Counted from the first letter of the stretch, positions 14,638-61,942 are shown. The stretch is DNA of 64,000 nucleotides from Elusimicrobiota bacterium (GCA_043827405.1 JBDRPD010000105.1:1-64000), one strand, 5' to 3'. Made by a program: numbers and translations. Notes: generated from the sequence alone by a model not told the origin.

Positions 14638-15168
14638 TCAAAATTGCGTTTTGGGATCGGACAGGTGGCACTGCCGGCAGCTGCTGCGCTCCGGGTGAGG
14701 GCTGCGCATGTTTTTATTCGGCTGTTCCGCGCCGTGGCAGACGCCGCATTTCTCGCGCAGAAACAGCCGGTGCGGAATCGCCGGCGGCGCCTTGGGGTGG
14801 GCGCGGCGTCCCGTACGCGGCTCTTTGAGACCGCGCCAGTTGGTCGCGACCGCGGCCGGCCGCTCGCCCGGAGGAGCGCTGCGTACGTGGCACTGCTGGC
14901 AGTTGGAGAACTCTGGGTGCGGCGTCTGGATGCTCACACGGTCGCCGAGATCCGTGACGTTTTCGTGGCAGCCGAGGCAGGTCTCGCTGCCCCGGTCAGC
15001 GATCTCATGCGGGATGACCGGCGGCGCGGTGTAGAAAGCACGCCGCTGGGCCCGCACCGGGTCGACCGGATCATCCTCGTCGGCGCCGAGCCCAGGCGTC
15101 GCCGCGAGCGCGGCCAGCCCGGCGCAGCCCATAACGGCCAGCAGGACGCGGCAGTTCCGGCTCATCAT
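14638..15168 (-). CDS. napB: NapB-like periplasmic cytochrome c with four CxxCH motifs
   Basis: Signal peptide; two PPxIPH units; CLGCH, CQQCH, CGVCH, CRQCH; ATGA overlap with napA stop. Confidence 0.8.
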   Translation of the reverse strand: MMSRNCRVLLAVMGCAGLAALAATPGLGADEDDPVDPVRAQRRAFYTAPPVIPHEIADRGSETCLGCHENVTDLGDRVSIQTPHPEFSNCQQCHVRSAPPGERPAAVATNWRGLKEPRTGRRAHPKAPPAIPHRLFLREKCGVCHGAEQPNKNMRSPHPERSSCRQCHLSDPKTQF

Positions 15169-17510
15169 GCTCGTTCCACCTTGACCGCGCACTTCTTGTA
15201 GTCGGGCTCCTTGGAGAACGGATCCCAGGCGTCGAGCGTCACCTGGTTGATGAGGCGGCCCTCGTCGAAGAAGGGCACAAAGACCAGACCCTTCTGCGGC
15301 ACGCTGCGCTCATCGATGGAAGCCGGCAGGACGATCTCGCCGCGGCGGGAGGCGACGCGGACCTCGTCGCCGCCGCGGATGCCGAGACGCGCGGCGTCCG
15401 CGGGATGCAGCTCCACGTACGCCCGCGGCATCGCGTTGTTAAGCTGGGGGACCCGCCGCGTCATCGTGCCCGTGTGCCAGTGCTCGATAACGCGGCCGGT
15501 GCACAGCCAGAAGGGATAGTTCTTGTCCGGCATTTCCGGCGGGTCCTCGTAGGGGCGGGCGTAGACAATGGCGCGCTGGTCCCCGGCCTTGGCCATATAG
15601 AAGGAAACGCCGTCGTCCTTTTTCACGTAGGGATCCTCGCCCTCGACGAAGCGCCGCTTGGTCTCGCGCCACGCGCCGGCGGCGTCCTGGACCACGGGCC
15701 AGCGCAGGCCGCGGTTCTCGACGTAGACGTCGTAGGGGGCGAGGTCCTTGTGCTTGAGGGTGGTAAAGCGCCGGTACTCCTCGAACAGGATCTTGTCGAT
15801 GTTGTGCTTCTTGAATTCGCTCCACTTCCAGGCTTCGATCTCGCGCCCCTTCTCGTCGCGTACCGTGAGCAGGAAGCCGCCGTCGCGGTCGCGCATGCCA
15901 GCGAAGCCCTTGTCGTAGAGGCGGCGCGCGACGGCGAGCAGCTGCCAGACGTCGTCGCGGGCGTCTCCCGGGGGTTCGATCATCTTGAACCATTGCTGGG
16001 TGCGCCGTTCGGTATTGCCGAACACACCGTTCTTCTCCACCCAGCCGGCCGAGGGCAGGACCACGTCGGCGAGCTCGGTGGTCACCGTCGGGTAGATGTC
16101 GGAGACCACCAGGAACCGGTCGCGCGCGGCCCGCATGTTCTCGTTGAGGTTGGGGATGGTCTGGGCGGGATTGGTCACCTGCACCCACATCCCGGTCAGC
16201 CCGCCGGATGCCAGCTCCTGGAACATCTGGACGGCGTGAAAGCCCGGTTTGGGGTTGAGCGCACCCGGTTGGGTGCGCCAGACGTCCTCGGTGAACTTGC
16301 GGTGCGCTGGGTCGTTGACAACGCGGCCGCCGGGCAGGGCGTGCGCCAGCGTCCCCACCTCGCGGCAGGTGCCGCAGGCGCTGGGCTGGCCGGTGAGCGA
16401 GAGCGGCGTGCTGCCCGGCTTGCCGATCTTGCCCGCGAGCAGGTGCACGTTGTAGACCAGGTTATTGATCGCCGTGCCGCGCGTATGCTGGTTCATCCCC
16501 ATGCACCACAGCGAGACCACTTTCCGCTCGGGATCGGCGAACTGGTCGGCCAGCACTTCCAGCTGCTTGACCGACAGTCCGGACCGCTGCGCCACCTGCT
16601 CCGGGGAGTAGTCCTCCAGGAAGCGCCGGTAGTCAGCGAAGCTGATGTCCTTTTCCTCGTTCGACTTGAAGCGCACGCGCTTTTCCACAAAGGCATTGTC
16701 GTAGGCGCCGCGCTTGAGCAGGATGTGGCAGATACCATTGGCGATTGCGAGGTCGGTTTGCGGAACAAACTCCATATAGTGATCGGCTGCTTCCGAGGTG
16801 CGGGTGCGGCGCGTAGCGAGATCGATCATGGTGACGGCGTCACCCTTGCTCTTGCGGTCGATGAAGCGCGAGAACAGGATGGGATGCATCTCGGCCCAGT
16901 TGTTGCCCCAGCAGATCACGGTGTCGCAGGTGTCGAGATCGTCGTAGCAGCCGGAGGGCTCATCCACGCCGAAGGTTTTGATGAAGCCGACGACCGCGCT
17001 CGCCATGCACAGTCGGGCGTTGGGATCGATGTGATTGCTGCCGAGCCCGCCCTTGAGGAATTTCATCGCGGTATAGCCTTCAATGACCGTCCACTGGCCC
17101 GAGCCGTAGACCGCGAAGCGTTCGGGGTCGGCGATAATCCTGTCGGCGATGAGGTCGATCGCCTGGTCCCAACTCGCCGGCGTCAGCTTGTCGTTTTTGC
17201 GGATCAGGGGGCGCGTCAGACGGTCGGGGCCGTAGAGGGCGGCGCCGGCGCTGTAGCCTTTGATGCAGAGCAGGCCCTTATTGACGGGGTTCTTGCGGTC
17301 GCCCTGTACGGCGACGATGCGGCCGTCCTTGACGCCCACCAGGGAGCCGCAGCCGGTGCCGCAGAATCGGCAGGGGGCTTTATGCCAGGACAGCCCGTCG
17401 CTGCCGAGGCGCTCGGCCGCAGCTTCGGCCGGCGCCGAGCTCAGGGCGGCCAGGGCCGCCGCTTGCGCGGAAAGCTTCAGGAACTGTCTACGCGTCAGGG
17501 ATTTTCTCAT
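15165..17510 (-). CDS. napA: Periplasmic nitrate reductase catalytic subunit
   Basis: Tat signal TRRQFLK; CRFCGTGC; DPNARLCMASAV (Mo-ligand Cys); NQHTRG; LTGQPSACG; SKEPDYKKCAVK. Confidence 0.95.
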   Translation of the reverse strand: MRKSLTRRQFLKLSAQAAALAALSSAPAEAAAERLGSDGLSWHKAPCRFCGTGCGSLVGVKDGRIVAVQGDRKNPVNKGLLCIKGYSAGAALYGPDRLTRPLIRKNDKLTPASWDQAIDLIADRIIADPERFAVYGSGQWTVIEGYTAMKFLKGGLGSNHIDPNARLCMASAVVGFIKTFGVDEPSGCYDDLDTCDTVICWGNNWAEMHPILFSRFIDRKSKGDAVTMIDLATRRTRTSEAADHYMEFVPQTDLAIANGICHILLKRGAYDNAFVEKRVRFKSNEEKDISFADYRRFLEDYSPEQVAQRSGLSVKQLEVLADQFADPERKVVSLWCMGMNQHTRGTAINNLVYNVHLLAGKIGKPGSTPLSLTGQPSACGTCREVGTLAHALPGGRVVNDPAHRKFTEDVWRTQPGALNPKPGFHAVQMFQELASGGLTGMWVQVTNPAQTIPNLNENMRAARDRFLVVSDIYPTVTTELADVVLPSAGWVEKNGVFGNTERRTQQWFKMIEPPGDARDDVWQLLAVARRLYDKGFAGMRDRDGGFLLTVRDEKGREIEAWKWSEFKKHNIDKILFEEYRRFTTLKHKDLAPYDVYVENRGLRWPVVQDAAGAWRETKRRFVEGEDPYVKKDDGVSFYMAKAGDQRAIVYARPYEDPPEMPDKNYPFWLCTGRVIEHWHTGTMTRRVPQLNNAMPRAYVELHPADAARLGIRGGDEVRVASRRGEIVLPASIDERSVPQKGLVFVPFFDEGRLINQVTLDAWDPFSKEPDYKKCAVKVERA

Positions 17511-17754
17511 CGTTCTGTTCTCCTGCGGCGTCTTCGAAGTTGTGATAGACCAGGTCGACTTGGACGACTCCTGGGATGCGCTCGATGCTCTTCCATACCG
17601 ACTTGTCTTCAGCGGGGAGCGAGGAGTCGGTAACTACCACCAGGTTCTCACCTTTTGCGTCGGTGACTTCGGCATGCGGGAGTTCGTTGATGGCGCGGCG
17701 GACTTTCTCGGTGCTGGCGCACTGGGTGCGGACGATGAGACTGGATATTGACAT
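17488..17754 (-). CDS. napD: NapD Tat-proofreading chaperone
   Basis: 88 aa, MSISSLIV...LVVVTD...[12 protein letters not shown], directly upstream of napA. Confidence 0.9.
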
Positions 17755-17810: not shown

Positions 17811-18131
17811 CTAGCGTATCATCTTCAGCTGCTCGGTGGCGACGGTTTTAATAACCGTCTCGCAGCAGCCGAAGAACTTGAGGATGCAGGGGACTCTGAG
17901 GGAATAGAAGACCTGATTGCCGCGCTTTTCGGCGGCGACAATGCCGGCGTTTTTGAGCAGCGTCAGGTGCTTGGATACCGTGGAGATATCGGCGCCGACG
18001 ATCTCGGTCAGGTCGCGCACGCAGCGTTCTTTTTCCGCCAAGGCGTCCACCATGCACAGGCGCGCCGGATGGGCCATCGCTTTCACGATCCGGGCGCGGG
18101 CTTCGAACTGGGCGCGGGTCTTGCCGTTCAT
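17811..18131 (-). CDS. arsR: ArsR/SmtB-family metalloregulator
   Basis: [33 protein letters not shown]-terminal C-x6-CC; divergent from acr3. Confidence 0.9.
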
Positions 18132-18137
18132 TTGTCT

Positions 18138-18157
18138 ATTTGGTATTATAGCCAAAT
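18138..18157. promoter_or_regulatory. Inverted-repeat operator enclosing divergent -10 elements (arsR / acr3-hgcAB)
   Basis: ATTTGG-TATTATAG-CCAAAT; the spacer reads TATTAT on + and TATAAT on -. Confidence 0.65.
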
Positions 18158-19355
18158 GATGGGCGAAGAGCAATCCGACGCCAAGGGGCTGGGCTTCTTC
18201 GAGCGCTACCTGACGCTGTGGGTGCTGCTGTGCATCGCCGGCGGAATCCTCCTGGGCAAGCTCGCGCCGGGCTTCGCCGCCCGGCTCGACGGCATGGCCG
18301 TCTATGTCGGCGCTGCCCCAGTGGTTTCAATTCCCATCGCCGTCTGCCTGTTCTTCATGATGTATCCCATTATGGTTAAGATCGATTTCGGCGAGGTGCT
18401 GCAGGCCGGACGCAGCATTAAGCCCGTGGGCTTGACCTTGCTCATCAACTGGGCGATCAAGCCGTTCACCATGTACGCGATCTCGACGTTTTTTCTCGGC
18501 ACGCTGTTTCTCGGCTTCATCGGGCCGGATGCGGTCGATCTGGTCAAGATGCCGCTCGGGCTCAACCTTGATGCGGGCGCGGCCTACGGCGCCGGCCGCG
18601 TCGTCATGGAGGGCGGCGTCAAGATGCTGGAGGTCCCGTTGTGGCGCAGCTACCTGGCCGGCTGCATCCTTCTCGGCATCGCCCCCTGCACCGCCATGGT
18701 TCTGGTCTGGGGCTATCTGGCGAAAGGCAATGACGGGCATACTTTGGTCATGGTCGCGATCAACTCCTTGGCCATGCTCTTTCTTTTTGGTCCGCTCGGC
18801 GGCTTTCTTCTCGGCGTCGGCCGCCTGCCGGTTCCCTGGCAGGCGCTGCTGCTGTCGATCGGGATCTACGTCGCGCTGCCTCTGGTCGCGGGCTACTTCT
18901 CGCGCCGGTGGATCATCGCCGCCAAGGGCGAGGTCTGGTTCAAAGAGAAGTTCCTGCAGGTGCTGACGCCGGTGACCATCTCGGCGCTCTTGATTACTCT
19001 GGTCCTGCTGTTTTCCTTCAAAGGAGAGGTGATCCTTTCCAATCCCCTCACGATAGTGTGGATCGCGGTGCCGTTGTTTCTCCAGACCGTTCTGATCTTC
19101 GCTCTCGGCTACGCGCTGGCGAAAGTTTTCAAACTCTCCTACCGCGACGCCGCTCCTTCGGCCATGATCGGCGCCTCGAACCATTTCGAGGTCGCGATCG
19201 CCACCTCGACCATGCTCTTCGGGCTTTCCTCTGGAGCGGCGCTGGCCACCGTGGTCGGAGTCCTCATTGAGGTTCCGCTCATGCTCATGCTGGTGCGCTT
19301 CTGCCTGCGGACGGATAAATGGTTTGCGACGGAAACACCGTCACCTCTGAATTGA
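18156..19355 (+). CDS. acr3: Acr3-family arsenite efflux transporter
   Basis: [60 protein letters not shown]. Confidence 0.95.
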
Positions 19356-20251
19356 GCCGGGCGGATATGCTCGGCTCGTGGAAGGCGCGCTGGGGCGTTA
19401 ACCGCATGCGCTACAAGGTCTGCCCCGGGCTGCGCACGCTGGGCAGTCCCGGAAAGGATTCCCCCGTCCTGGTATCGGCCAACTACAAGATGAGCTTTGA
19501 CCGCTTGCGCGCGGCGCTGGCGGGGCGCGATGCCTGGATTCTCGTGCTCGACACCCAGGGGATCAATGTCTGGTGCGCGGCCGGCAAAGGCACCTTCGGC
19601 ACCGATGAGCTCGTCGCCAGAATTGAGCAGCATAAGCTGTCGGAAGTCGTATCTCATAAGACGGTCATCGTGCCGCAATTGGGCGCACCCGGGGTCTCCG
19701 GCTATGCGGTGACCAAGCGCACGAGGTTTAAGGTGATTTTCGGCCCGGTGCTCGCGGCGGACCTGCCGGCATTCCTGGATGCCGGCATGAGGGCGACGCG
19801 GGAGATGCGCCGGGTGAAGTTCGATTTATGGGACCGTGCCGTCCTCGTCCCCATGGAGCTCGTGGGCTGGGGCAAGTATGTCCTGCCGCTTTGCTTGCTG
19901 CTGTATTTCGCCGGCGGATGGATATACGCGCTGCCGGGGCTAATTGCGCTCCTGGCCGGCGCGGTGTTGGGACCGCTGCTGCTGCCCTATCTTCCGGGGC
20001 GGAGTTTCTCGGCCAAAGGCGCTTGGACCGGCCTGGCTTGCGCCGTCGCCGCCGCGCACGCAGCGCGGCTGCCGGGGATGCCGGCGGCGGCATGGGTATT
20101 GATCATCACGGCGCTGTCGTCTTTCATGACGGCGTATTTCACCGGCTGCTCTACCTACACGTCTCTGTCCGGGGTGCGCAAGGAGCTTCGCTTCGCTGTT
20201 CCGCTGCAGGGGAGCGCCGCTCTAATCGGGCTGGTGCTGCTGTTCCTATGA
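19319..20251 (+). CDS. hgcA: Mercury methylation corrinoid protein
   Basis: Cap-helix motif [34 protein letters not shown]-terminal TM helices; [16 protein letters not shown]. Confidence 0.96.
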
Positions 20252-20544
20252 CCCGGCACCGATACCTAAGCGGCGTCTCCACGCTCGCGCTCGACGCGGC
20301 GAAGTGCACGGGCTGCGGCTTCTGCCTTGACGTCTGCCCGCATGAGGTCTTCCAGTTGGCGGACAAGAAGGCCGTCATCGCCGATCTCGACGCCTGCATG
20401 GAGTGCGGAGCCTGCGCGCTTAACTGCCCGACGCAGGCGCTCTTGGTTGAGTCCGGCGTCGGCTGCGCCCAGGCCATCGTCAAAGGCGCCGTTACCGGCA
20501 CCGAGCCCACCTGCGGCTGCGAGAATAAGCCGGACTGCTGCTAG
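20248..20544 (+). CDS. hgcB: Mercury methylation 2x[4Fe-4S] ferredoxin
   Basis: CTGCGFCLDVCP, CMECGACALNCP, GVGCA, C-terminal CGC...CC; ATGA overlap with hgcA. Confidence 0.96.
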   Translation: MTRHRYLSGVSTLALDAAKCTGCGFCLDVCPHEVFQLADKKAVIADLDACMECGACALNCPTQALLVESGVGCAQAIVKGAVTGTEPTCGCENKPDCC

Positions 20545-20771: not shown

Positions 20772-21881
20772 GTGACGTACTCGTATGTAGCAGGTATGGT
20801 GAACGGGTATGGCGAAGTCAGTTCGGGCATCGATCTCGCTGCTCTGTCGGATAAGGCCTTGCTGGCGTCGCTCAAGCGCTTGGTCGCCGAGGAGCGCGTC
20901 CGTACCGTCGACGTGCTGCGGCATCTCGCGGAGGCGGATCGGCGTCGGGCATATGAACCGGAAGCGTTTCCGAGCCTGTTCAGCTACTGCGTGCGGGAGC
21001 TCGGTTTTTCCGAGGAGCAGGCGTATCGCCGAATTCGGGTTGCGCGCGAAGGAAGGGATTACCCGGTGATCTTTTCAATGCTCGAGCGCGGGGAAATCTC
21101 GCTTACGGTGGTTGCCTTGTTGGCGCCGCACCTGGGGCGTGAGAATTACAGTCGGCTTCTCAAGCAGGCCGCGGGCAAGACGCGGCGTGAGGTCGAGCGC
21201 ATTATCTCCTCGCTCGCACCGAAGCCTGAACCCAGCGACCGCGTGCGATATTTAGGGACACGACGAGCGGCGAGTCAGGCATTGACGCCGGCTTCATCCG
21301 AGCCGTCCGCACAGAGGATGTTCCTGGAGGCTGGCGGCGAACTTGTGTCGAAGTCCGGTGATGCCGAGATCGAAATAATAGATAGCAGATCGGCAGAGAG
21401 TGGGTCGGCGGAGAGCGGGTCGGCGGAGAGTAGGCCGGCAGATAGCAGATCGGCAGAGGGCAAGCCGGCAGATAGCAGATCGGCAGAGAGCAAGCCTGCT
21501 GATAGCAGATCGGCAGAGAGCAAGCCGGCAGATAGCAGATCAACAGAGGGCAAGCCGGCAGATAGCAGATCGGCAGAGAGCAAGCCTGCAGATAGCAGAT
21601 CGGCAGCGAGCGGGTCGGCGGAGAGCGGGAAAAGTGAAGCTGCTGCGATGAATGCTCATGAGCAGGGATTGTCCCAGCGCGTTTGTCTTAAGTTCGCCGC
21701 CGATGAGAGCCTGCTGGTTAAGCTGCGCCGCGCACGGGAGCTGCTTTTCCATAAGTATCCTTCGGGGCGCCTGGAATTTTTGGTCGGGCAGGCGCTGGAG
21801 GATTTACTGGAGAAGCGAGACCCAGAGCATCGGCTCGCGCGGCTGGCGAATAGGAAACGCCGCGCGCGGGACCGGCCGTAA
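20772..21881 (+). CDS. DUF222-like protein (N-terminal part of HNH-associated family) with internal tandem repeats; no HNH domain; start uncertain
   Basis: LSDKALL..LKRLVAEER...HLAEADRRR...SLFSYCVRELGFSEEQAYRRI; C-terminal KLRRARELLFHKYP; no C-x2-C or HNH motif before the stop. Confidence 0.6.
   Translation: MTYSYVAGMVNGYGEVSSGIDLAALSDKALLASLKRLVAEERVRTVDVLRHLAEADRRRAYEPEAFPSLFSYCVRELGFSEEQAYRRIRVAREGRDYPVIFSMLERGEISLTVVALLAPHLGRENYSRLLKQAAGKTRREVERIISSLAPKPEPSDRVRYLGTRRAASQALTPASSEPSAQRMFLEAGGELVSKSGDAEIEIIDSRSAESGSAESGSAESRPADSRSAEGKPADSRSAESKPADSRSAESKPADSRSTEGKPADSRSAESKPADSRSAASGSAESGKSEAAAMNAHEQGLSQRVCLKFAADESLLVKLRRARELLFHKYPSGRLEFLVGQALEDLLEKRDPEHRLARLANRKRRARDRP
21381..21629 (+). 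repeat. In-frame 30-bp tandem repeat (about DSRSAESKPA) with 15-bp subunits
   Basis: GATAGCAGAT at 21381, 21441, 21471, 21501, 21531, 21561, 21591; flanking 15-bp units encode SAESG. Confidence 0.95.
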
Positions 21882-22018: not shown

Positions 22019-23266
22019 TTGGCCGTCATAACGATTTTTCATGCCTCCCGTTGCCACGGGAATGAGGTCGCTGATGCCGTGGCGAAGCAGACTGGTTGTG
22101 AGCGCATCGAGGACCGGCTGTTCGCGGACGCTTCCCGCCGGTTCCAGGTATCCAAAGAGAAGCTTCTCGGGGCGATGACCGGCCCCGCCCCCTTCTGGAA
22201 CAGATTTACGCACGAGCGGGAGAAGAACTTGGCCCGGTTAAGGGTCGTTCTCGCCGACTTGGTGGCGGATGATTCCAAGCTGCTCGTCGGCCTCGCCGCG
22301 CACCTTGTTCCCCGCGACCTGGCGCATGTCCTGCGGGTATGCGTCGTCGCCAATTTCGGGTACCGGGTTCGGCAAGCCGCGCTGGAGACGGGGAAGGCCG
22401 AGAACGAGGTCTCCGAGCTCCTGCGCGGTGAGGACGCTGAACTCCTGGAATGGACGCGCTACCTTTACGAAAAACCCCCCTACGAGGAAGAGCTCTACGA
22501 TCTCGTGGTTCCGATGCAGGACCAATCCGTTGCCGCGGCCGCCGGGCTCATCTGCGAGCAGGCGAAGAGTTCGTCCGTAGCGGTGACCGAAGTCTCCCGC
22601 GTCGCCGCGCGTGATTTCCAGCTGGCGGCCTTGGTGGGGCTGGAACTGGCGCAGGCGAATCATGATGTCGATGTGCGTGCCCGCCACGGCGAGATCACCA
22701 TCGCGCTCAAGCAGCATGTCCTGATGATGGCGCAGTACCAGCGGGAACTGCGGGGGATCGCGGAGAAAGTTTCCGGAGTCGACGGCGTGAAGTTCGGCTT
22801 CGCTCCGCGGTACAAGGCGCCCGCCATCAATACCATGTCCAATGTGGAGCTGCCGCCGAAGATCCTGCTCGTCGATGACGAAAAGGACTTTGTGCAGACT
22901 GTTTCGGAGCGGCTCAAAACGCGCAATCTCGACTCCTCCGTCGTCTACAATGGACAGCAGGCGCTGGACTATGTCGAGAGTGATCAGCCGGATGTGGTGG
23001 TCGTCGATTTGATGATGCCCGGCATCGGCGGTATCGAGGTCCTGCGCCGGATCAAGAAGACTCACCCGAACATCGAGGTTATCGTCCTGACCGGTCATGG
23101 TTCGGAGCAGGAGGAGCGCCTGGCCGCTGAGCTTGGGGCCTTCGCGTACCTGCAGAAGCCGGTTAATATCGACATCCTCGCGCGCACCATGCGTGAGGCC
23201 TATCAGAAGGTGAACGAGACCAGGGCGAAGTCTCCGCCGGACGCTCGGGATCGAGAGGCGCAATGA
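22019..23266 (+). CDS. Cytidylate-kinase-like + BON-like + C-terminal receiver domain protein
   Basis: TTG start after GGAGGG; AVITIF, HVLRVCVVA, YDLVV; receiver LLVDDE, VVDLMMPG, LTGHGS, YLQKP. Confidence 0.8.
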   Translation: MAVITIFHASRCHGNEVADAVAKQTGCERIEDRLFADASRRFQVSKEKLLGAMTGPAPFWNRFTHEREKNLARLRVVLADLVADDSKLLVGLAAHLVPRDLAHVLRVCVVANFGYRVRQAALETGKAENEVSELLRGEDAELLEWTRYLYEKPPYEEELYDLVVPMQDQSVAAAAGLICEQAKSSSVAVTEVSRVAARDFQLAALVGLELAQANHDVDVRARHGEITIALKQHVLMMAQYQRELRGIAEKVSGVDGVKFGFAPRYKAPAINTMSNVELPPKILLVDDEKDFVQTVSERLKTRNLDSSVVYNGQQALDYVESDQPDVVVVDLMMPGIGGIEVLRRIKKTHPNIEVIVLTGHGSEQEERLAAELGAFAYLQKPVNIDILARTMREAYQKVNETRAKSPPDARDREAQ

Positions 23267-24978
23267 CGTCCTCCGAAGCGCCGCAGGAGAAGGAGGCGCG
23301 GTCCACGCTGGCCGGCGGGACCGTCGGCAAGGTGCTGCGGTATCAGCATCTGTGGCTGACCTCCGTCATCGTGACCTCGTTGGTGGCCATTACGCCGCTG
23401 CTTATCATGGCGGCGTTCGACTACTCCCATAATCGCGCGGCAGGCCGCGTTGAAAGCCAGCTGACGATAAACCGTCTGCTGGGGACCACTAAGCGCAGCC
23501 TTGAGGACGCGATTCGGGAGCGCCGCGAGGTCCTCTCTCTGCTTCTCATCGAGAGGTCGCATTCGGAGTTGACACAGAAGGCGGCGCTGTCCCGTACGCT
23601 CGCCCACCTGCAGGACACCTTCGGCGGCTTCGTCGATCTCGGCCTGATCGACTCGGGCGGCAAGCAGATCGCGTACGCCGGACCGTTCGATCTCAAGGGC
23701 AAGAACTATAAAGACCAGGATTGGTTCCATGCGACGCGGCTCAAGGGCGTCTATGTCAGCGACGTGTTTAAGGGGTTTCGAAACTTCCCCCACTTCGTGA
23801 TCGCGCTGCAGAAGAAGAAGGGCGCCGATGATTTTTTTATCCTGCGCGCGACGTTGGATATGGAGCTCATTAACCGGCGCATCTACGACCTGAATCTCGA
23901 CCGCGATACGGATGCGTTTATTATTAATCAGGACGGCGTGCTGCAGACCGACTCGGCGCTCTACGGCGCCGCGCTCACCCGGATCGATATCCGCGTCCCG
24001 TCCCGTTCGCGCAGCACCGACGTCGTCGACGAACGTCTCCAGGACGGCTCATGGCTTACCTCGGGTTTCGCCTATATCGAGGACGCTCCCTACATCTTCG
24101 TTGTCGTTAAGCGGCAGCGCAATCCTCTGTGGGTGTGGCTGGGCCATCGGTCCACGATGTTCTGGTTCCTCGGCGCCAGTATTATCGTCATTCTCGCCGT
24201 CGGGTTCTTTAGCTCGACCTGGATCGTCAAGCGCCTCGGCAAGGCGGACGCGGAACGCGCCCGCGAGCTGCATGATCTCGAGTACACCAATAAGCTGGCG
24301 ACCATCGGCCGCATGGCGGCCACGGTCGCCCATGAGATCAACAACCCCCTGGCGATCATCGAGGAGAATGCGGGGCTGCTCAAAGATATGGCGACGTTTT
24401 CCGCGGGGCATCCGCAAAAGGAAAAGACGCTCAAGCTTGTTGAGCTAATACACAAGTCGGTGGCGCGCTGCAGTGATGTGACCCATCGGCTGCTTGGTTT
24501 TGCCAAGCGCATGGATATCCAGCGCGAGCCGATTGCCCTCGATAAGCTGCTTGAGGAAGTCGCCAGCTTCCAGAAGACCGAGGCCCTGCACCGGAACATC
24601 AAGATCGATTTCGCCTTGCCGGATTCGCTCCCCCCCGTTATCGGCGACCGCGGGAAGCTGCAGCAGGTGTTTCTCAATATCATCAGCAACGCTTTGTCCG
24701 CGGTGGACGACGGGGGTCGGATTCAGATTGAGGTGGCTCAGCTGGACGCTACGCATGCGTCGGTGATGGTCACTGATAACGGGAGCGGTATCGGTCAAAA
24801 GGATCTGAAGCATATTTTCGAGCCCTTCTATTCGACCAAGGGAGAGTTCGGAACGGGGTTGGGGCTTTCCATTACCCGCGATATCGTCACCAAGTTGGGC
24901 GGTACGATAGAGGTGCAAAGCGAGGTCGGCAGCGGCACAAGCTTTATCGTGACCTTGCCTATCCAGGGGAAAGTGTGA
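23263..24978 (+). CDS. Membrane sensor histidine kinase (Cache-like domain)
   Basis: 2 TM; YVSDVFKGFR; KLATIGRMAATVAHEINNPL; DNGSG; FEPFYSTK; GTGLGLSI. Confidence 0.92.
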   Translation: MTSSEAPQEKEARSTLAGGTVGKVLRYQHLWLTSVIVTSLVAITPLLIMAAFDYSHNRAAGRVESQLTINRLLGTTKRSLEDAIRERREVLSLLLIERSHSELTQKAALSRTLAHLQDTFGGFVDLGLIDSGGKQIAYAGPFDLKGKNYKDQDWFHATRLKGVYVSDVFKGFRNFPHFVIALQKKKGADDFFILRATLDMELINRRIYDLNLDRDTDAFIINQDGVLQTDSALYGAALTRIDIRVPSRSRSTDVVDERLQDGSWLTSGFAYIEDAPYIFVVVKRQRNPLWVWLGHRSTMFWFLGASIIVILAVGFFSSTWIVKRLGKADAERARELHDLEYTNKLATIGRMAATVAHEINNPLAIIEENAGLLKDMATFSAGHPQKEKTLKLVELIHKSVARCSDVTHRLLGFAKRMDIQREPIALDKLLEEVASFQKTEALHRNIKIDFALPDSLPPVIGDRGKLQQVFLNIISNALSAVDDGGRIQIEVAQLDATHASVMVTDNGSGIGQKDLKHIFEPFYSTKGEFGTGLGLSITRDIVTKLGGTIEVQSEVGSGTSFIVTLPIQGKV

Positions 24979-24991
24979 TGGGACAGCGGTG

Positions 24992-25363
24992 ATGGACAAC
25001 AGTTTGCGGATGCTTGTGATCGACGACGAGGAGGACTTGGTGACGGCATTGGTCGAGCGTCTCGGTTATCGGGGCATCGAGGCGGAGTATGCCCTGGATG
25101 GGCGAACGGCGCGCGAGAAGCTCGAAACGAATAGCTACGATATCGTCATCCTCGATCTGAAGCTCCCGGGAGAAAGCGGCGCCGAACTTCGCGATAGTAT
25201 CGCGCGGAAATATCCCGAGCTCCCGATCCTGATGATAACGGGCCATGGCGCGCACCCCGAGAGCCCGGGCTCGCCTCCGCTGCCGGGAGGTACCGTGCTG
25301 GAGAAGCCGGTTAACCTGGATGTCCTCATCGAGAAAGCGCGCGAAATGGCGAAGAAGCGCTAG
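24992..25363 (+). CDS. Single-domain response regulator
   Basis: VIDDEE, ILDLKLPG, ITGHG, EKPV. Confidence 0.88.
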   Translation: MDNSLRMLVIDDEEDLVTALVERLGYRGIEAEYALDGRTAREKLETNSYDIVILDLKLPGESGAELRDSIARKYPELPILMITGHGAHPESPGSPPLPGGTVLEKPVNLDVLIEKAREMAKKR

Positions 25364-25368
25364 GGCCG

Positions 25369-25929
25369 ATGCCGGGAGAAAGCGCGGAGAACGCGGAGCT
25401 GAGCTTCCTCGGCGAGATCACCACCTCGGCGGCGCACGACCTCAATAACGTCGTCTCGGTCATCGAACAGACCGCGGGCCTTCTTGAAGACCTCCTCCTT
25501 CCGGAAGCGGAAGGCGCGGCGGTGTCCAAAGAGCAGCTCGAGAATATCGTCGAGAAGCTGAACCGGCAGACCCGGCGGGGCGCGGCGATCATCAAGCGGC
25601 TGAAGAATCTCGCCCACGACGCGGGCGAGCCCGGGCGGGAATTCGATGCGGCCGCCGCCCTCGTGACCGCGGCCGCGCTTTCTCAGCGCTTGGCGGAGCG
25701 CCGGAAGATTGTGCTCGATGCCCGCCTTAGCGAAGCGCCGGTCGCCGTTCGGGGCAGCGCCTTTCGCTTCCAGCAGGCCCTCTATGCGGCGCTCAGAAGG
25801 ATGATCTCCGGAGCGCCGGAGGGCAGCACGCTGACGCTCCGGGTTGAGAAAAGCGGAGACGGCGCGGCGGTCAGCGTGACGGGAACGCCGGGCGCCCCGC
25901 TGGAAAAAGACGAATTTCGCTTCCCTTAG
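25369..25929 (+). CDS. Truncated/degenerate histidine kinase (HisKA plus partial HATPase)
   Basis: FLGEITTSAAHDLNN H-box; FQQALY; no N, G1 or G2 boxes. Confidence 0.7.
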   Translation: MPGESAENAELSFLGEITTSAAHDLNNVVSVIEQTAGLLEDLLLPEAEGAAVSKEQLENIVEKLNRQTRRGAAIIKRLKNLAHDAGEPGREFDAAAALVTAAALSQRLAERRKIVLDARLSEAPVAVRGSAFRFQQALYAALRRMISGAPEGSTLTLRVEKSGDGAAVSVTGTPGAPLEKDEFRFP

Positions 25930-29260: not shown

Positions 29261-29261
29261 T

Positions 29262-30563: not shown

Positions 30564-30652
30564 AGTTGTTGGAGGCCTCCAGGCATTATTGTGATTGCGG
30601 TTGATATGACCAATTATAGCCGATTTCTGCCGCGCTTTTTTCGCCAGGCGGA

Positions 30653-31050: not shown

Positions 31051-31054
<4 letters not shown>
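30653..31054 (-). CDS. Single-domain response regulator
   Basis: LVDDE, MDVKMPG, LTGHA, GAFDYLTKP. Confidence 0.92.
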
Positions 31055-31452
<398 letters not shown>

Positions 31453-47194: not shown

Positions 47195-47267
47195 TACGTA
47201 ACTGGTAAAAAATAAGACGTCGTCTGGGGGGCCGCAACTCCCCCCTTCGGCGCGCCATGAGCGACCT

Positions 47268-47828: not shown

Positions 47829-48820
47829 ACGCAATATACTCATTACTTATCGTCGCCCTGCTGCTTATTCTCGTGGTGGGGAGCGCGGGGCTGGGAGCTT
47901 TCCCGACCCTGTTCGGGGTGGTGATCCCCTACGCGGCGTTCGCCCTGTTTGCGGTGGGCTTCGTCTACAAGATCCTCCACTGGGCGTCGGTTCCGGTTCC
48001 GTTTCGTATTCCCACGACCAGCGGCCAGCAGAAGTCGCTGCCCTGGATCAAGAGCAGCTACTTTGACAACCCGCACAATACCCTGGGAGTCATCGGCCGG
48101 ATGGCGCTCGAGGTCCTGTTTTTTCGTTCGCTGTTCAGCAACTCGCGCTCCGAACTGCGGCCCGGACTGCGGCTGACCTATGCCGAAAGCAAATGGCTGT
48201 GGGCCGGCGCCATGGTTTTTCACTGGTCGTTTCTGGTCATCCTGCTGCGTCACTTCCGTTTCTTCGTCGAGCCGGTGCCGCGGTTCGTCCACATTCTGCA
48301 GTTCTTCGACGGCTTCTGGCAGATCGGCGTGCCGATCTTCTATGCGAGCGGCGCGGCGCTGATCGCGGGCGCCGGCTATTTGCTGCTGCGGCGGCTCGCG
48401 ATTCCTCAGATCCGCTATATCTCGCTGCCGGCGGACTACTTTCCCCTGTTTCTCATTCTGGGGATCGCCGGCTCGGGAGTCAGCATGCGCTACCTCACCA
48501 AGGTGGACCTCATCGCCGTCAAAGAGCTGACCATGGGGCTTATGAGCTTTCAGCCCGCCGCCGTCGGCGGGATTGGGATGGTGTTCTACATCCATCTCTT
48601 TTTCGTCTGCGCTCTGATCGCCTATTTCCCGTTCAGCAAGCTGATGCACCTGGGCGGCATCTTCCTGAGCCCCACCCGCAATATGGCGAACACCAACCGC
48701 ATGCAGCGGCATATCAACCCCTGGAACAACCCGGTCAAGGGGCATACGTACGAGGAATACGAGGACGAGTTCCGTGATCTCATGAAGGGCGCCGGACTGC
48801 CCCTGGAGAAGGAAAAGTAA
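47825..48820 (+). CDS. dsrM: DsrM cytochrome b subunit
   Basis: PVPFRIPTT.GQQ, FHWSF..LRH, YIHL...YFPFSKLMH (four His). Confidence 0.96.
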   Translation: MNAIYSLLIVALLLILVVGSAGLGAFPTLFGVVIPYAAFALFAVGFVYKILHWASVPVPFRIPTTSGQQKSLPWIKSSYFDNPHNTLGVIGRMALEVLFFRSLFSNSRSELRPGLRLTYAESKWLWAGAMVFHWSFLVILLRHFRFFVEPVPRFVHILQFFDGFWQIGVPIFYASGAALIAGAGYLLLRRLAIPQIRYISLPADYFPLFLILGIAGSGVSMRYLTKVDLIAVKELTMGLMSFQPAAVGGIGMVFYIHLFFVCALIAYFPFSKLMHLGGIFLSPTRNMANTNRMQRHINPWNNPVKGHTYEEYEDEFRDLMKGAGLPLEKEK

Positions 48821-50448: not shown

Positions 50449-50824
50449 TGCGGGCAAAATACTGGCCGGTCTCGTGATCTTCCTCGCGTTGCTGACCTCG
50501 CCGTTGTGGTACAACGCGGCCAGCGGCCGGAGCGCCGCGCCGCCGCAGCCGGTGCTCCCCGTCGGCGAGACGCAATGCGTCGCCGCCAAGGACTATATGC
50601 GGGCGAACCATATGAACATGCTCAACGAATGGCGGGACCTGGTCGTCCGCGAGGGCCAGCGGACGCATGTCACGCCGGACGGGCGGAAGTTCGAGATGAG
50701 CCTGACCCGGGGCTGCATGAAGTGCCACACCAACCGGCAGGAGTTCTGCGTCAAATGCCATGACTACTCCGGGGTCACGGAGTACTGCTGGGACTGCCAC
50801 GTCGAGCCGGAGAGGGTACAGTGA
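50441..50824 (+). CDS. dsrJ: DsrJ triheme cytochrome c
   Basis: MRANHM.ML.EWRD.VVR; CMKCH, CVKCH, CWDCH. Confidence 0.95.
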   Translation: MHDAGKILAGLVIFLALLTSPLWYNAASGRSAAPPQPVLPVGETQCVAAKDYMRANHMNMLNEWRDLVVREGQRTHVTPDGRKFEMSLTRGCMKCHTNRQEFCVKCHDYSGVTEYCWDCHVEPERVQ

Positions 50825-51594
50825 TGGATAGAAAACAGTTTCTCAAGCTGGCCGGCCTGACCGCCGTCGCCGGGGCGGTCGGCAAATTGCCGCTGGTCGC
50901 GAAAGCCGCGGGCGGCGGACATTCCGGCGGGCGCCCCCAGGGATACGGCAAGCGCTACGCGATGGCTATCGATCTCGGCAAGTGCCGCCAGGAGAAGGGC
51001 TGCACCCGCTGTTTCGACGCCTGCCATGCGGAGCATAACGTTCCCGATTTCGGCAACAAGAAAGACGAGATCAAGTGGATATGGAACGAGCCGTACGGGA
51101 ATGTTTTTCACGAGCAGGGCCACGAGTTCCTGCCCGAGGAGCTGCGGCAGGGGCCGGCCCCGATCCTGTGCAATCACTGCGACAGCCCCGCCTGCACCAA
51201 GGTGTGCCCGGTACAGGCGACCTGGAAGCGCAAGAGCGACGGCGTCGTGATGATGGACTGGCACCGCTGCATCGGCTGCCGCTACTGCATCGCCGCCTGT
51301 CCCTACGGGGCCCGGAGCTTCAATTACCGCGACCCGCGGCCGTTCATTAAGAAGCTCCGCAAGGAGTTTCCCACCCGCACCAAAGGCGTGGTGGAGAAGT
51401 GTAATTTCTGCGAGGAGCGGCTGGCCAAGGGCCAGGGGCCGTCGTGCGTGGAAGCGTGCAAGGCCCAGGCCCTCACCTTCGGCAACCTCGATGAGCCGGA
51501 TTCTGAGATACGCAAGCTGCTCAGCTCGAGGTATACCGTCAGGCGCAAGGCCGGGCTCGGGACCGGCCCGCAGGTCTACTACGTGATGTCATGA
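50821..51594 (+). CDS. dsrO: DsrO periplasmic Fe-S protein
   Basis: Tat-like DRKQFLK; CNHCDSPACTKVCP, CIGCRYCIAACPY, CNFC. Confidence 0.93.
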   Translation: MMDRKQFLKLAGLTAVAGAVGKLPLVAKAAGGGHSGGRPQGYGKRYAMAIDLGKCRQEKGCTRCFDACHAEHNVPDFGNKKDEIKWIWNEPYGNVFHEQGHEFLPEELRQGPAPILCNHCDSPACTKVCPVQATWKRKSDGVVMMDWHRCIGCRYCIAACPYGARSFNYRDPRPFIKKLRKEFPTRTKGVVEKCNFCEERLAKGQGPSCVEACKAQALTFGNLDEPDSEIRKLLSSRYTVRRKAGLGTGPQVYYVMS

Positions 51595-51601
51595 GGAACT
51601 T

Positions 51602-52762
51602 ATGCTGCTAGAGAAGGCGCTCATCGGAAGCAAGAAGTACTACCTGTGGATGGCATTTTTGGCCGGCGTGATCGGCGTGGGAATGCTGTTCTACCTCAAG
51701 CAGTTCTGCTACGGCCTGGGAGTGACGGGTCTGAGCCGCGATGTCTCTTGGGGCTTCTATATCGCGCAGTTTACCTTTCTCGTCGGCGTGGCGGCGTCGG
51801 CGGTCATGGTGGTGCTGCCGTACTACCTGCACGACTATAAGGCATTCGGCAAGATCACGATCCTCGGCGAGTTTATCGCCGTCCCGGCCGTCATCATGTG
51901 CCAGCTGTTTATCTTCGTCGATATGGGCCAGCCGCTGCGCCTTATGAACGCGATGCTGTACCCCACCCCGGGATCGATGATCTTTTGGGACATTATCGCG
52001 CTGTCGGGCTACCTGGGGCTTAACTTGCTCATCGGTTTCGTGACGCTCAGCTGCGAGCGCAAAGACGTCCCCCCTCCGTCCTGGATCAAGCCGGTGATTA
52101 TTCTGTCGATCCCGTGGGCGGTCAGCATCCATACGGTGACGGCGTTCCTCTACTCCGGCCTCGCGGCCCGGCCGTTCTGGATGACCGCGGTGCTGGCGCC
52201 TCGCTTCCTGGCTTCCGCCTTCGCCGCCGGTCCGGCGCTGCTGATCCTGCTCTGCCTGGTGCTGCGTAAGATCTCGAAGTTCGACGCCGGTGAGCAGCCG
52301 ATCCAGAAACTGGGCGTCATCGTAACCTACGCTATGGTGGCGAACGTCTTCTTCGTGCTCATGGAGCTCTTCACCGCCTTCTACAGCGGTATCCCGGAGC
52401 ATATGGCGCACTTCGAGTTCCTGTTTGTCGGCTTGGCCGGCAACACCACCTTGGTCCCTTGGATGCGGACTTCCGCGGTGCTGGGGCTGCTGTCTTTGGG
52501 TCTGCTGCTGTGGCCGGGGATGCGCCGCAAAGAAGGCGTTCTCGCGGCCGCCTGCGTCATGGTCTTCGCCTCATTGTGGATCGACAAGGGGCTGGGCATG
52601 ATCATCGCCGGCTTTATTCCGTCTCCGCTGGGCACCATCCCGATGTACTGGCCGACCATGCCCGAGCTGATGGTCAGCCTCGGCATTTACGGGATCGGGG
52701 CGTTTATCCTCAGCGCTCTCTACAAGATGGTCCTGACCATGCGGGGGCAGGTCGCGGCGTAA
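51602..52762 (+). CDS. dsrP: DsrP NrfD/PsrC-family membrane protein
   Basis: GLSRDVSWG.YIAQFTFLVGVAA, IPWAVSIHTVTAF, APRFLASAF. Confidence 0.95.
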   Translation: MLLEKALIGSKKYYLWMAFLAGVIGVGMLFYLKQFCYGLGVTGLSRDVSWGFYIAQFTFLVGVAASAVMVVLPYYLHDYKAFGKITILGEFIAVPAVIMCQLFIFVDMGQPLRLMNAMLYPTPGSMIFWDIIALSGYLGLNLLIGFVTLSCERKDVPPPSWIKPVIILSIPWAVSIHTVTAFLYSGLAARPFWMTAVLAPRFLASAFAAGPALLILLCLVLRKISKFDAGEQPIQKLGVIVTYAMVANVFFVLMELFTAFYSGIPEHMAHFEFLFVGLAGNTTLVPWMRTSAVLGLLSLGLLLWPGMRRKEGVLAAACVMVFASLWIDKGLGMIIAGFIPSPLGTIPMYWPTMPELMVSLGIYGIGAFILSALYKMVLTMRGQVAA

Positions 52763-55518: not shown

Positions 55519-55539
55519 ACGCAGTTGATGGGAGGGCGC

Positions 55540-56019
55540 ATGCTGAATTTTCCGAAGCCGTGCCGCCGGGAGAATGTCGAAACCGGCAAGAATTATCACC
55601 GTGTTAGGCGGGACGGCTTTACGCTGATCGAATTAATGATTGTGGTCGCAATCATCGGAATTCTAGCGGCGGTCGCTATACCGAAGTTCGCAGATCTGGT
55701 CCGCAAGTCCAACGAAGGAGCGACAAAGGGCAACCTGGGCGCCGTTCGCAGCGCATTAAGTATCTATTACGGAGACCAGGAAGGACTATACCCGAACACT
55801 CCTGCAGCGTTGACCACCGGCGGCGACTATATAGATATGATCCCCGAGGCGAGAACGCCGAGCTATCATGCAGACTCGGGTACTATCAGCCAAAGTCAGA
55901 GCACCAATGATACCGGCGGCTGGGGATATAACAATACCGCAGGCGCTGCTAACTTCGGCTTCCTTTTTGTAAACTGCTCGCATACAGATTCAAAAGGAAG
56001 CATCTGGAGCTCCTATTAG
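55540..56019 (+). CDS. Type IV pilin / pseudopilin; start uncertain
   Basis: G-FTLIELMIVVAIIGILAAVAIPKF prepilin cleavage motif. Confidence 0.88.
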   Translation: MLNFPKPCRRENVETGKNYHRVRRDGFTLIELMIVVAIIGILAAVAIPKFADLVRKSNEGATKGNLGAVRSALSIYYGDQEGLYPNTPAALTTGGDYIDMIPEARTPSYHADSGTISQSQSTNDTGGWGYNNTAGAANFGFLFVNCSHTDSKGSIWSSY

Positions 56020-59766: not shown

Positions 59767-60408
59767 ATGCCCAACACCTATTTGCCGATCGGACTATCCC
59801 TGAAGAACCGCCGCTGCCTGATCGTGGGCGGCGGCCATATCGCGCTGCGCAAGATCGAGGCGATGCTGGACTACGACTGCAGGATCACCGTCATCGCGCC
59901 CGAGACCGTCGAGAAGATCGATTACTTCGCGGAGGCCGGCCGCCTGACGCTGGCGAAGCGCGCCTACAGGTCCCCGGAGGCCAAAAAGTTCGGCATCGTC
60001 ATCGCGGCCTGCGACGACCGCAAGGTCAATAAAAAAATCGCCGCCGACTGCGAGAAGGCGGGCGTGCCGATCAACGTCGTCGACGACCCCGAGCTCTGCG
60101 GCTTCATCTTCCCCGCCATCGTCCAGCGCGACAACCTGACCGTCTCCGTATCGACCGACGGCAAGTCGCCCTTCCTGGCCGGGCACCTGCGGCTGATCCT
60201 CGAGGACATCTTTCCTGAGCGCTGGAAGAAGATCGCCGGAGCGGCCGCGCAGTTCCGGAGCATGGTTCGCCAGCGCTGGCCGAAGTCCCCCAAGGAGCAG
60301 ACGGCGTGCTACAAGCGCTTTGTCGAGGCCGATTGGAAGACGGTTCTGAAGGATAAAAAGGATGCCGGTGAGCTCGAGGACGTGCTCGTCGACCTGCTGA
60401 GCGAATAG
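59767..60408 (+). CDS. Precorrin-2 dehydrogenase / sirohydrochlorin ferrochelatase (SirC, CysG N-terminal type)
   Basis: LIVGGGHIALRK, NVVDDPELCGFIFPA, VSTDGKSP. Confidence 0.92.
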   Translation: MPNTYLPIGLSLKNRRCLIVGGGHIALRKIEAMLDYDCRITVIAPETVEKIDYFAEAGRLTLAKRAYRSPEAKKFGIVIAACDDRKVNKKIAADCEKAGVPINVVDDPELCGFIFPAIVQRDNLTVSVSTDGKSPFLAGHLRLILEDIFPERWKKIAGAAAQFRSMVRQRWPKSPKEQTACYKRFVEADWKTVLKDKKDAGELEDVLVDLLSE

Positions 60409-60409
60409 C

Positions 60410-61942
60410 ATGGCGGATGCGGCTCAGGGAGTCGTCTACCTTATCGGCGCCGGTCCCGGCGACCCCGAGCTTATCACGGTCAAAGGCAAGCGGCTCCTGG
60501 AGACCTGCGACGCGGTCATCTACGACAATCTCGTAGCCAACGAGTTCGTGCTGGCTCTCCCTGAGGCGGCGGAGAAGCACTATGTGGGGAAACGGGCCGG
60601 CCATCACTGCTTTTCCCAGGACGAGATCAACAAGCTCCTGGTCAAGCTCGGCAAGGAAGGCAAGCGCGTCGCCCGGCTTAAGGGCGGCGACCCCTTTGTT
60701 TTCGGCCGCGGCTCCGAGGAGGCGCGTTTTCTCAAGCAGCACGGCGTTCGCTTCGAGGTGGTCTCCGGCGTGACCTCCGGCGTCGCGGCGCTGGCCTATA
60801 ACGGCATCCCCTGCACCGACCGGAGCAAGTCATCTTTCGTTGTCTTCGCCACCGGTCACAAAGCGGGCGAGAAGCGCGAATCGTCCGTCCCCTGGGGCTG
60901 GATCGCCCAAGCGCGGCGGGGCACCGTCGTAATTTACATGGGTATCGGCGAGATGGAAGCCATCGTCGACCAGCTGCTCACCGGCGGCATGCCGCCGGAG
61001 ACTCCCGCCGCCGTCATCGAGCGCGGCACCTTTCCCTCGCAGCGGGTGGTCCAGGCCGAGCTGGCGGAGCTGCCGAAAAAGACCCGGGCGGCCGGCCTGC
61101 GTCCGCCGGCGATCATCGTCATCGGCGACGTGGTCAGCCTGCAGTCCGAGCTGGAGTGGTACGAGAAGCGGCCGCTGTCCGGCATTCGCGTCATGATCAC
61201 ACGGATCGCCGGTCAGGCGCGTGAGATGCGCGACTCCCTCCGGGATTTGGGCGCGGAGATCCTGTCCTATCCGACCTTGGCGGTCGAGACGCATGACGAC
61301 GCTGAAGGCTGGCGTTCTTTTGACCGGATCGGAAGCGGCGGCAAGTGGCTGGTGTTTACCAGCAGCAATGCCGTGCGGTTTTTTATCCGCCGCTTCGTGG
61401 AGCGCCGCGGTGATATCCGGCAGCTGGCGGGCTTTAAGATCGCGGCTGCGGGAGCAAGCACGGTGCAGGCGCTGCGTGATCTGCATCTGGAGACCGATTT
61501 CGCTCCCGCCATGGCGACCGTGGATACGCTGAGCGCGCGGATGCTCGAAGAGCTGGACCTTAAGGGCGCCGAAGTCGTGCGGGTGCGCGGCAATCTGGCG
61601 GCATCGACTATTGAGGACCGGTTCGAAGCGGCGGGCGTCCGGGTGACGCCGCTGACCGTCTACCAGACGCATAATCCCGTTTGGCCGGATGGGCTCAAGA
61701 GCAAACTGTTCGACCACCCGCCGCAGGTCCTGGTTTTTACCAGCGGCTCATCCGTCGAGGGCCTGTTCTCCAACCTGACAGAAGACGAAGTTCGTACTCT
61801 CACCGCCGGCGCAGTCATCGCCTCTATTGGCCCGATGACGAGCAGCGCCCTGCAGGCGCGCGGCTTGACCGTGACTCTGGAAACCAAGAAATTGACGGTT
61901 CCGGATCTTATCAAGTCCATCGCCGACCTCCACAAAAAATAG
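60410..61942 (+). CDS. Uroporphyrinogen-III C-methyltransferase / synthase fusion (CobA-HemD)
   Basis: GAGPGDPELIT, RLKGGDPFVFGRG; HemD half FTSSNAV, FTSGSSV, SIGPMT. Confidence 0.94.
   Translation: MADAAQGVVYLIGAGPGDPELITVKGKRLLETCDAVIYDNLVANEFVLALPEAAEKHYVGKRAGHHCFSQDEINKLLVKLGKEGKRVARLKGGDPFVFGRGSEEARFLKQHGVRFEVVSGVTSGVAALAYNGIPCTDRSKSSFVVFATGHKAGEKRESSVPWGWIAQARRGTVVIYMGIGEMEAIVDQLLTGGMPPETPAAVIERGTFPSQRVVQAELAELPKKTRAAGLRPPAIIVIGDVVSLQSELEWYEKRPLSGIRVMITRIAGQAREMRDSLRDLGAEILSYPTLAVETHDDAEGWRSFDRIGSGGKWLVFTSSNAVRFFIRRFVERRGDIRQLAGFKIAAAGASTVQALRDLHLETDFAPAMATVDTLSARMLEELDLKGAEVVRVRGNLAASTIEDRFEAAGVRVTPLTVYQTHNPVWPDGLKSKLFDHPPQVLVFTSGSSVEGLFSNLTEDEVRTLTAGAVIASIGPMTSSALQARGLTVTLETKKLTVPDLIKSIADLHKK

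Follow-up and report, generated by a model that had tools for sequence, protein, structure and literature searches.

Genes for sulfate reduction, periplasmic nitrate reduction and predicted mercury methylation in an Elusimicrobiota genome

The reductive dissimilatory sulfite reductase (Dsr) systems of Zixibacteria, Acidobacteriota, Armatimonadota and other lineages share the gene order dsrABD-N-L-C-T-MKJOP, a DsrL protein of the YRR type and the accompanying genes qmo, aprBA and sat (PMC10591310, PMC7596348). Here we analyzed a stretch of 64,000 nucleotides (GCA_043827405.1 JBDRPD010000105.1:1-64000, hereafter the window), the first 64 kb of contig C105 (115,294 bases) of an Elusimicrobiota genome, G000 (4.33 Mb, 108 contigs), in which a qmo-dsr cluster of the same kind stands together with siroheme, napDAB and arsR/acr3-hgcAB genes. 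The locus differs from the described reductive systems in its host phylum, and the five Elusimicrobiota sequences form a clade of their own. G000 holds a complete, likely laterally acquired set of sulfate-reduction genes, and we regard it as probable, from gene content, that it respires sulfate and forms sulfide; nitrate and oxygen are predicted alternatives, and mercury methylation is predicted for the separate hgcAB genes. The sulfate pathway itself is known, and it is the host lineage that appears to be new.

Elusimicrobiota have been viewed as fermenters or as respirers of oxygen or nitrate (PMC12740246, 10.1101/765248). Nitrate and oxygen respiration was described for 94 groundwater Elusimicrobia genomes (10.1101/765248), with which G000 shares NapA, oxygen respiration and Rnf; the main text of that paper contains none of the words ‘sulfate’, ‘sulfite’, ‘dsr’ and ‘mercury’. 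One Elusimicrobia assembly with dsrAB has been presented (PMC10504309), in which DsrAB is basal, the gene order is dsrN-EFH-AB-C-TM-J-O-P, DsrK is missing and the part of the syntenic block given in a supplement row lacks DsrD; the five genomes considered here share dsrAB and the phylum with it, whereas they have DsrD and DsrK and gave no DsrE match. Outside the phylum, a facultatively aerobic sulfate-reducing acidobacterium (PMC10564751) resembles G000 in being a member of a non-canonical phylum that has both sulfate-reduction genes and an aerobic chain, but there the switch was shown by transcriptomics, whereas in G000 it is predicted from genes, and G000 has nap and hgcAB in addition. The string ‘Elusimicro’ is absent from the main text and one supplement of a survey of 950 genomes (PMC10591310), and ‘Elusimicrob’ from one supplement each of PMC13293266 and PMC11406059; the available parts of PMC12740246, PMC11484514 and PMC8357290 contain no dsr in Elusimicrobiota. 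No report of complete sulfate reducers in this phylum was found in a literature search that left subscription journals largely outside. In NCBI, four of these DsrA proteins already carry a product and an organism label, so the sequences are publicly accessible but seem to have gone without discussion. An earlier note on this DNA, made from the sequence alone, had called the lineage unexpected; the sulfate pathway is indeed surprising there, but hgcA and nitrate respiration had already been reported in Elusimicrobia.

Sulfate-reduction genes and the direction of the pathway

All genes that the earlier note had listed, namely napDAB, arsR/acr3-hgcAB, qmoCAB-dsrABDNLCTMKJOP and the siroheme genes, are present and intact. 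The sulfur genes lie on the plus strand and comprise qmoC-qmoA-qmoB (36174..40866), dsrA and dsrB of the reductive bacterial type (41012..43336), a divergent form of dsrD (43352..43600), the siroheme amidase gene dsrN (43723..45141), dsrL of type 2 (45158..46831), dsrC, encoding a terminal CX10C, with dsrT (46877..47828), the membrane-complex genes dsrMKJOP (47825..52762) and, for siroheme synthesis, sirC/cysG-N and cobA-hemD (59767..61942). DsrA and DsrB scored 592 and 508 against NCBIfam cut-offs of 393 and 342, and QmoC, DsrN/CobB, DsrC, DsrM, DsrK, DsrJ, DsrO, DsrP, SirC/CysG-N and CobA-HemD were likewise over their NCBIfam cut-offs. QmoA and QmoB matched HdrA models below cut-off in a library without dedicated models for them; QmoB has an FlpD domain.

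The product of the gene after dsrB, 82 residues long, had no Pfam match even at E 0.05 and no true match among PDB sequences. Homologues of the same size just past dsrB were collected from 80 loci, giving 71 distinct full-length sequences (6 loci without match, 2 cut off), and comparison with the Atlas gave a feature score of 0.98 to DsrD clusters and a TM (template modelling) score of 0.84 to a PF08679 cluster. By position, positional homologues and the Atlas, the gene was identified as dsrD. DsrL was identified by its position, its GltD-like domains and a YRR motif at residue 297 of the predicted protein; this motif defines DsrL-2, whose members use NADPH (PMC7596348).

Beyond the window, tmcBCD, hmcABC and aprBA are located on C105 at 67.7–85.1 kb and sulP on the same contig, whereas the H+-pyrophosphatase gene is on contig C47. 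The search for sat and aprAB, which the earlier note had proposed, was positive for both, with aprBA on the same contig and the only sat of G000, over its cut-off, at the end of contig C81 (C81:47455-48651, L004). The genomic sulfate-reducer set of dsrAB, dsrC, dsrMKJOP, sat, aprAB, qmoABC and pyrophosphatase is complete. The tmc and hmc genes form a hybrid tmcD-C-B-hmcB-C-A operon (L174:5727-12925, C105:67727-74925) with the same order in the relative G435, and a second DsrK-like/NarI-like pair lies behind a MerR-like gene (L174:16419-19416, C105:78419-81416); such a pair is also found in the Zixibacteria-type loci L030 and L037.

Taking the steps from the established biochemistry of these families, sulfate would be imported by SulP or by TauE/SLC13 permeases and activated by Sat, with the membrane pyrophosphatase pulling this step. 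Adenosine 5′-phosphosulfate would be reduced by AprAB with electrons from QmoABC, and DsrAB, activated by DsrD and fed with NADPH through DsrL-2, would hand sulfur to DsrC, whose trisulfide would be reduced to sulfide by DsrMKJOP. NADPH for DsrL-2 could be supplied by the nearby membrane transhydrogenase pntA1-pntA2-pntB (11737..14562, minus strand) or by a group 3b-like hydrogenase of G000; pntAB does not adjoin dsr in the relatives' stretches examined and was rejected as a part of the island. Since G000 further encodes an aa3 oxidase accompanied by an alternative-complex-III-like block, a bd oxidase, complex I, Rnf and 2-oxoacid oxidoreductases, a facultative life is plausible.

The reductive direction is favoured by DsrD, the YRR-type DsrL and the absence of matches to DsrE (PF02635; 0 of the 5 dsr-bearing genomes) and YeeE (0 of 6), and the marks of type I DsrEFH and oxidative rDsrAB were not found. 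DsrA shares 44% identity with an oxidative rDsrA from a phage, and DsrAB appears to group with reductive sequences in an unrooted tree of near rows only. The combination of DsrD with dsrAB, dsrC and dsrMK has been proposed as a sign of reductive metabolism (PMC8794893).

Several points weigh against sulfate respiration by G000; those on the trees and the read check are given in the next section. Reductive-type DsrABD also occurs in disproportionators and in nitrate-coupled sulfide oxidisers (PMC8794893), and, because type II DsrEFH is missed by standard models (PMC13293266), the DsrE blank is not decisive. NrfA was not found in G000, and nrfA is present in 2 of the 5 dsr genomes. Moreover, G000 lacks the sat beside aprB that the other four dsr genomes have, the slot between aprB and sulP holding sat in G344 and being empty in G000. 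The sat on C81 is 43–44% identical to those of the other four genomes, and its closest PDB entries, 1JHD and 4DNX, are presumably enzymes of sulfur oxidisers.

This affiliation of Sat, together with napDAB on the same contig and the aa3 oxidase with its alternative-complex-III-like block, would suit a use of the same genes in reverse or for disproportionation. In this mode, exemplified by Desulfurivibrio alkaliphilus and cable bacteria, nitrate or oxygen serves to oxidise sulfide or sulfur; it is known for organisms with reductive DsrABD (PMC8794893, PMC13293266). We consider this use unlikely in G000, since the type II dsrEFH of bacteria is clustered with yeeE and tusA (PMC13293266) and the genomes gave neither DsrE nor YeeE matches, and napA is found in only one of the five dsr genomes. 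TusA, Sox and SQR motifs were also lacking among 3,568 called proteins, although motif matching is a weak test here. Scans for SQR, Sox, NirK, NosZ, Nor, ACS and CODH motifs were blank as well, which counts for little because the same scan missed the H+-pyrophosphatase that was found otherwise.

Less probable still is that the island is used only in part, for sulfite or thiosulfate respiration, or persists as a remnant in a mainly aerobic or fermenting organism. Its rarity (5 of 301 class genomes), the lack of the island's own sat and the full aerobic chain of G000 are in line with such use, but the dsr, qmo and apr frames are all intact and over cut-offs, the GC content at third codon positions of qmo-dsr (0.845) is close to the genome median (0.827), another sat passes its cut-off, and the other four genomes keep sat beside aprB. 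We retain sulfate respiration to sulfide as the preferred reading, and G000 and its four relatives are likely unrecognised sulfate reducers, as judged from their genes.

Host, contig integrity and history of the island

The completeness of G000 is 97.97% and its contamination 0.48%, and it contains a 16S rRNA gene. By core genes the host was assigned with a single marker, RpoB, for which 28 of the 120 best homologues were organism-named, 26 of these Elusimicrobia and the other two ‘bacterium’ only; RpoB of Elusimicrobium minutum is 64% identical, and a tree of 34 rows placed G000 among Elusimicrobiota. By this marker the host phylum is Elusimicrobiota, as the earlier note had suspected, and not Desulfobacterota or another known sulfate-reducing lineage, the outcome that it had named as contrary to its proposal. 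The pilin that the note had taken as a sign of this phylum (55525..56019, plus strand, 2.8 kb past dsrP) has 12 matches within G000 and homologues in all 16 host-family genomes. A second proposed sign, a DUF222-like hypothetical protein with an internal repeat (20772..21881, plus strand), was dropped as a lineage marker, its nearest Atlas clusters belonging to Acidobacteriota, Myxococcota and Bdellovibrionota. This protein contains about eight near-identical 10-residue repeats in a run and has one partial paralogue, on contig C84. ThrS (L176:4247-5989, C105:102247-103989) was also tried as a host anchor and was uninformative, being 49–54% identical to its syntenic counterparts in the family and 68% to one other-family genome, likely as a replaced copy; the pilin, Pgk and synteny were used as host anchors instead.

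Completeness and contamination, depth, synteny, composition and the host pilin make a chimeric contig unlikely. At the far end of C105, secG-pgk-gapA and a tRNA-Leu have the same gene order as in the six family relatives examined, and in tetranucleotide composition none of the 5-kb segments of C105 deviates beyond the 92nd percentile of the 810 segments compared. In sequencing run X1, eight contig pieces matched C105 at 10–30 kb with zero mismatches at depths of 14.8–20.3, leaving gaps of about 95 and 90 bases, and a single piece spans pntA, napBAD, arsR and acr3. Contig depth is flat in the read-coverage check that the earlier note had suggested against chimerism; X1, the sole run fully covering the stretch, may however be the genome's own source. 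In a run of a second study, pnt and hgcA were matched by near-identical pieces, unlinked and of low depth, and two RNA runs gave short pieces only, mostly at 90–95%, with no bearing on expression either way.

The island lies between tRNA-Ala(GGC) (315..390, minus strand) on the left and tRNA-Leu(GAG) (contig positions 92,346-92,431) on the right. Since these two tRNA genes are 92 kb apart in G000 and 5.8 and 11.3 kb apart in two relatives, the only two of six with both tRNAs within the stretch examined, the interval is an expanded variable region. No att repeats were found at the two flanking tRNAs and no integrase was recognised in the window annotation, and therefore a discrete integrative element is not demonstrated. 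The napDAB and arsR/acr3-hgcAB genes sit in this same tRNA-flanked region in G000 only.

Of 301 class genomes, five have a dsrB gene over cut-off, namely G000 and G344 of the host family, G465 of the same order, and G432 and G435 of one family in another order. Across the phylum, dsrA was over cut-off in 2 of 401 genomes, and among the 80 best loci from a scan of named genomes at least four are Elusimicrobiota-titled, including one (L031) from a single-cell genome. All five dsr genomes have aprA, sat, dsrK and the H+-pyrophosphatase, and the relatives have the same accessory genes, differently arranged (qmoCAB, siroheme genes, sulP and regulators, with tmc/hmc in G435). The earlier note had treated nap, hgc and dsr as one cluster; they do stand together in G000, but a single conserved unit was rejected, napA being present in 1 of the 5 dsr genomes and hgcA in 1 of 4 titled genomes, there on another contig. 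Thus dsr is the shared trait and its linkage to nap and hgc is particular to G000.

A magnetosome-like cluster was observed in G435 (L281:9155-18995, contig C112), with best Mam matches to MamA, MamQ, MamE/O-like proteases, MamB and MamM, each below cut-off; it suggests magnetotactic sulfate reducers in its family, f8. G000 has no magnetosome genes. The isolate behind locus L033 is reported to be magnetotactic, and ‘dsr’ and ‘sulfite’ are missing from the available text of its description (10.1101/2022.07.08.499144).

Regarding the origin of the island, DsrA is 77–87% identical to its 120 nearest homologues, none of which is named Desulfobacterota; the 15 organism-named ones comprise 4 Elusimicrobia, 7 Zixibacteria, 2 GN15, 1 FCB group and 1 ‘bacterium’. 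Identity to the best 80 loci, mostly Zixibacteria- or Ignavibacteria-titled, is 75–86%, and a search for a DsrA outgroup among plasmids gave no match. In a DsrAB tree of 77 rows, for which 4 of the 80 loci were dropped as incomplete, the five Elusimicrobiota sequences formed one clade with SH-aLRT (Shimodaira-Hasegawa-like approximate likelihood ratio test) support of 100 among Zixibacteria- and Ignavibacteria-titled rows, a position that points to an old lateral acquisition. A tree of ten Dsr proteins (25 rows) recovered the five-genome clade at 99 and both two-member families at 99 and 95, unlike the DsrAB-only tree, which pairs L033 with L045 (94). All trees were quick maximum-likelihood trees and unrooted, and for DsrA the rows nearest to the query were taken, so that the donor and the direction of transfer are not proven. 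The GC content of the dsr locus tracks that of the rpoB locus in all five genomes (0.61/0.61, 0.63/0.64, 0.48/0.46, 0.54/0.54 and 0.66/0.65), and the ratio of Dsr to RpoB distances is 0.85–1.3 within the order or the second family and 0.4–0.5 between orders. The island thus likely came long ago from a donor of the Zixibacteria/Ignavibacteria type, was passed one or more times between Elusimicrobia orders and is now kept by few genomes. Its history may comprise a single old entry followed by one between-order transfer, or else two entries from the same donor lineage, together with numerous losses.

It is very improbable that the link to Elusimicrobiota is an artefact of a chimeric contig or a mis-binned Zixibacteria-like piece, as the mostly Zixibacteria or Ignavibacteria affiliation of near DsrA relatives, the divergent ThrS and the two small gaps in a read check perhaps made on the source sample might suggest, because the same clade occurs in four other Elusimicrobiota-titled genomes (one single-cell), GC content follows each host, the host pilin and backbone genes share the contig, and the eight X1 pieces match without mismatch.

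Nitrate, arsenic and mercury genes and the neighbouring regions

On the minus strand, a napB-like gene for a four-haem cytochrome c (14638..15168), napA for a periplasmic nitrate reductase with a twin-arginine leader (15165..17510) and the chaperone gene napD (17488..17754) supply a Nap set complete for NapA with its leader, NapD and a cytochrome partner. NapA scored 926 against an NCBIfam cut-off of 904, NapD passes Pfam, and NapB is barely over its Pfam cut-off (27.9 vs 25.1). No NapC or NapGH quinol dehydrogenase adjoins napDAB; a NapH/G-like fusion, below cut-off, is encoded on contig C25. NapA is 51–57% identical to 11 others among the 301 class genomes, and napA is likely a separate gain. 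Two octahaem HAO-family proteins (L180:5102-6634 and L181:5056-6555), the first with 4QO5 as best PDB match, are candidates for nitrite reduction, NrfA being absent.

Next to nap, an arsR-family regulator gene (17811..18131, minus strand) is divergent from the arsenite exporter gene acr3 (18156..19355, plus strand), which is followed on the same strand by hgcA for a corrinoid protein (19319..20251; cap helix NVWCAAGK, hydrophobic C-terminal half) and hgcB for a ferredoxin (20248..20544; two 4Fe-4S motifs, C-terminal CC). The scores of HgcA (411 vs 275, NF040863), HgcB (122 vs 99, NF040864) and Acr3 (367 vs 283) exceed their cut-offs; HgcAB carries the marks of mercury methylators, from which methylation is predicted. 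The cap helix, the HgcB cysteines and the nearby arsR and acr3 are as in Pseudodesulfovibrio mercurii ND132, in which ArsR controls hgcAB (10.1101/2022.10.17.512643), and in the hgcAB of Elusimicrobia, but in G000 arsR shares the orientation of napDAB and diverges from acr3-hgcAB. It precedes napD by 56 bases on that strand and is 24 bases from the called start of acr3, and one sigma-70-like site at window positions 17488-18156 is directed at acr3. Control of nap by ArsR could result from this arrangement.

Occurrence of hgcA in Elusimicrobia is known, and sulfate reduction among methylators is given for four other groups (PMC7438021). It was over cut-off in 26 of 401 phylum genomes and in none of the nine other host-family members; the single positive among the four Elusimicrobiota-titled dsr genomes has it on a contig other than that of dsr. 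In a tree of 32 rows, HgcA of G000 groups (98/95) with that of L114, from another dsr-bearing Elusimicrobiota genome, and in a tree of 83 rows it belongs to a five-row set supported at 95; the G000 and L114 sequences stand apart from other Elusimicrobiota HgcA.

Between hgcAB and qmo, a response regulator/histidine kinase block (22079..25929, plus strand) is found that is also near dsr in G435 and G465. It is followed by minus-strand genes for a phosphoenolpyruvate-synthase-like protein, a TauE/SafE permease with its partner, two-component proteins and an SLC13/CitMHS transporter (25926..36030). At window positions 28574-35058, the TauE/SafE permease, its 228-residue partner without a Pfam family and the SLC13-type transporter, which is 80% identical in G435, lie beside qmo. 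The TauE/SafE and SLC13-type proteins are candidate sulfate or sulfite carriers, and the neighbouring genes may serve regulation. Past the siroheme genes, helix-turn-helix and macro-domain genes and the start of a membrane protein–HmcF-like pair (62081..64000, plus strand) lead toward tmc/hmc and aprBA. Elsewhere in G000, an AioA/IdrA-type molybdoenzyme with a Rieske subunit (L231:1345-4634, G000:C53:91345-94634), over arsenite-oxidase cut-offs and encoded just after a four-haem protein, would be an arsenite oxidase or an iodate reductase. A cluster on contig C12 (L179:587-8837) encodes a decahaem DmsE/MtrA-type protein, a 689-residue protein and 4-, 11- and 19-haem cytochromes, for which extracellular electron transfer is possible.

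Meaning for Elusimicrobiota

The enzymes are already known, and no new chemistry emerges from this analysis. If the preferred reading of sulfate respiration is true, the 23 bacterial phyla to which sulfate or sulfite reduction is ascribed (PMC10591310) would be joined by one more, and a well-supported DsrAB clade would gain a taxonomic home, which would help to assign environmental dsrAB reads. The five genomes offer a small testable case of a respiratory island of about 50 kb moving between orders, and G000, having dsr, nap, aa3 oxidase and hgcAB, can be named as a concrete candidate for forming methylmercury where conditions shift between oxic and anoxic. More broadly, we see an even chance that an old lineage of true sulfate reducers, spread over three or more families and at least two orders, has been overlooked in Elusimicrobiota, which would include a magnetotactic family and, in G000, a mercury methylator switching between oxygen, nitrate and sulfate at redox boundaries.

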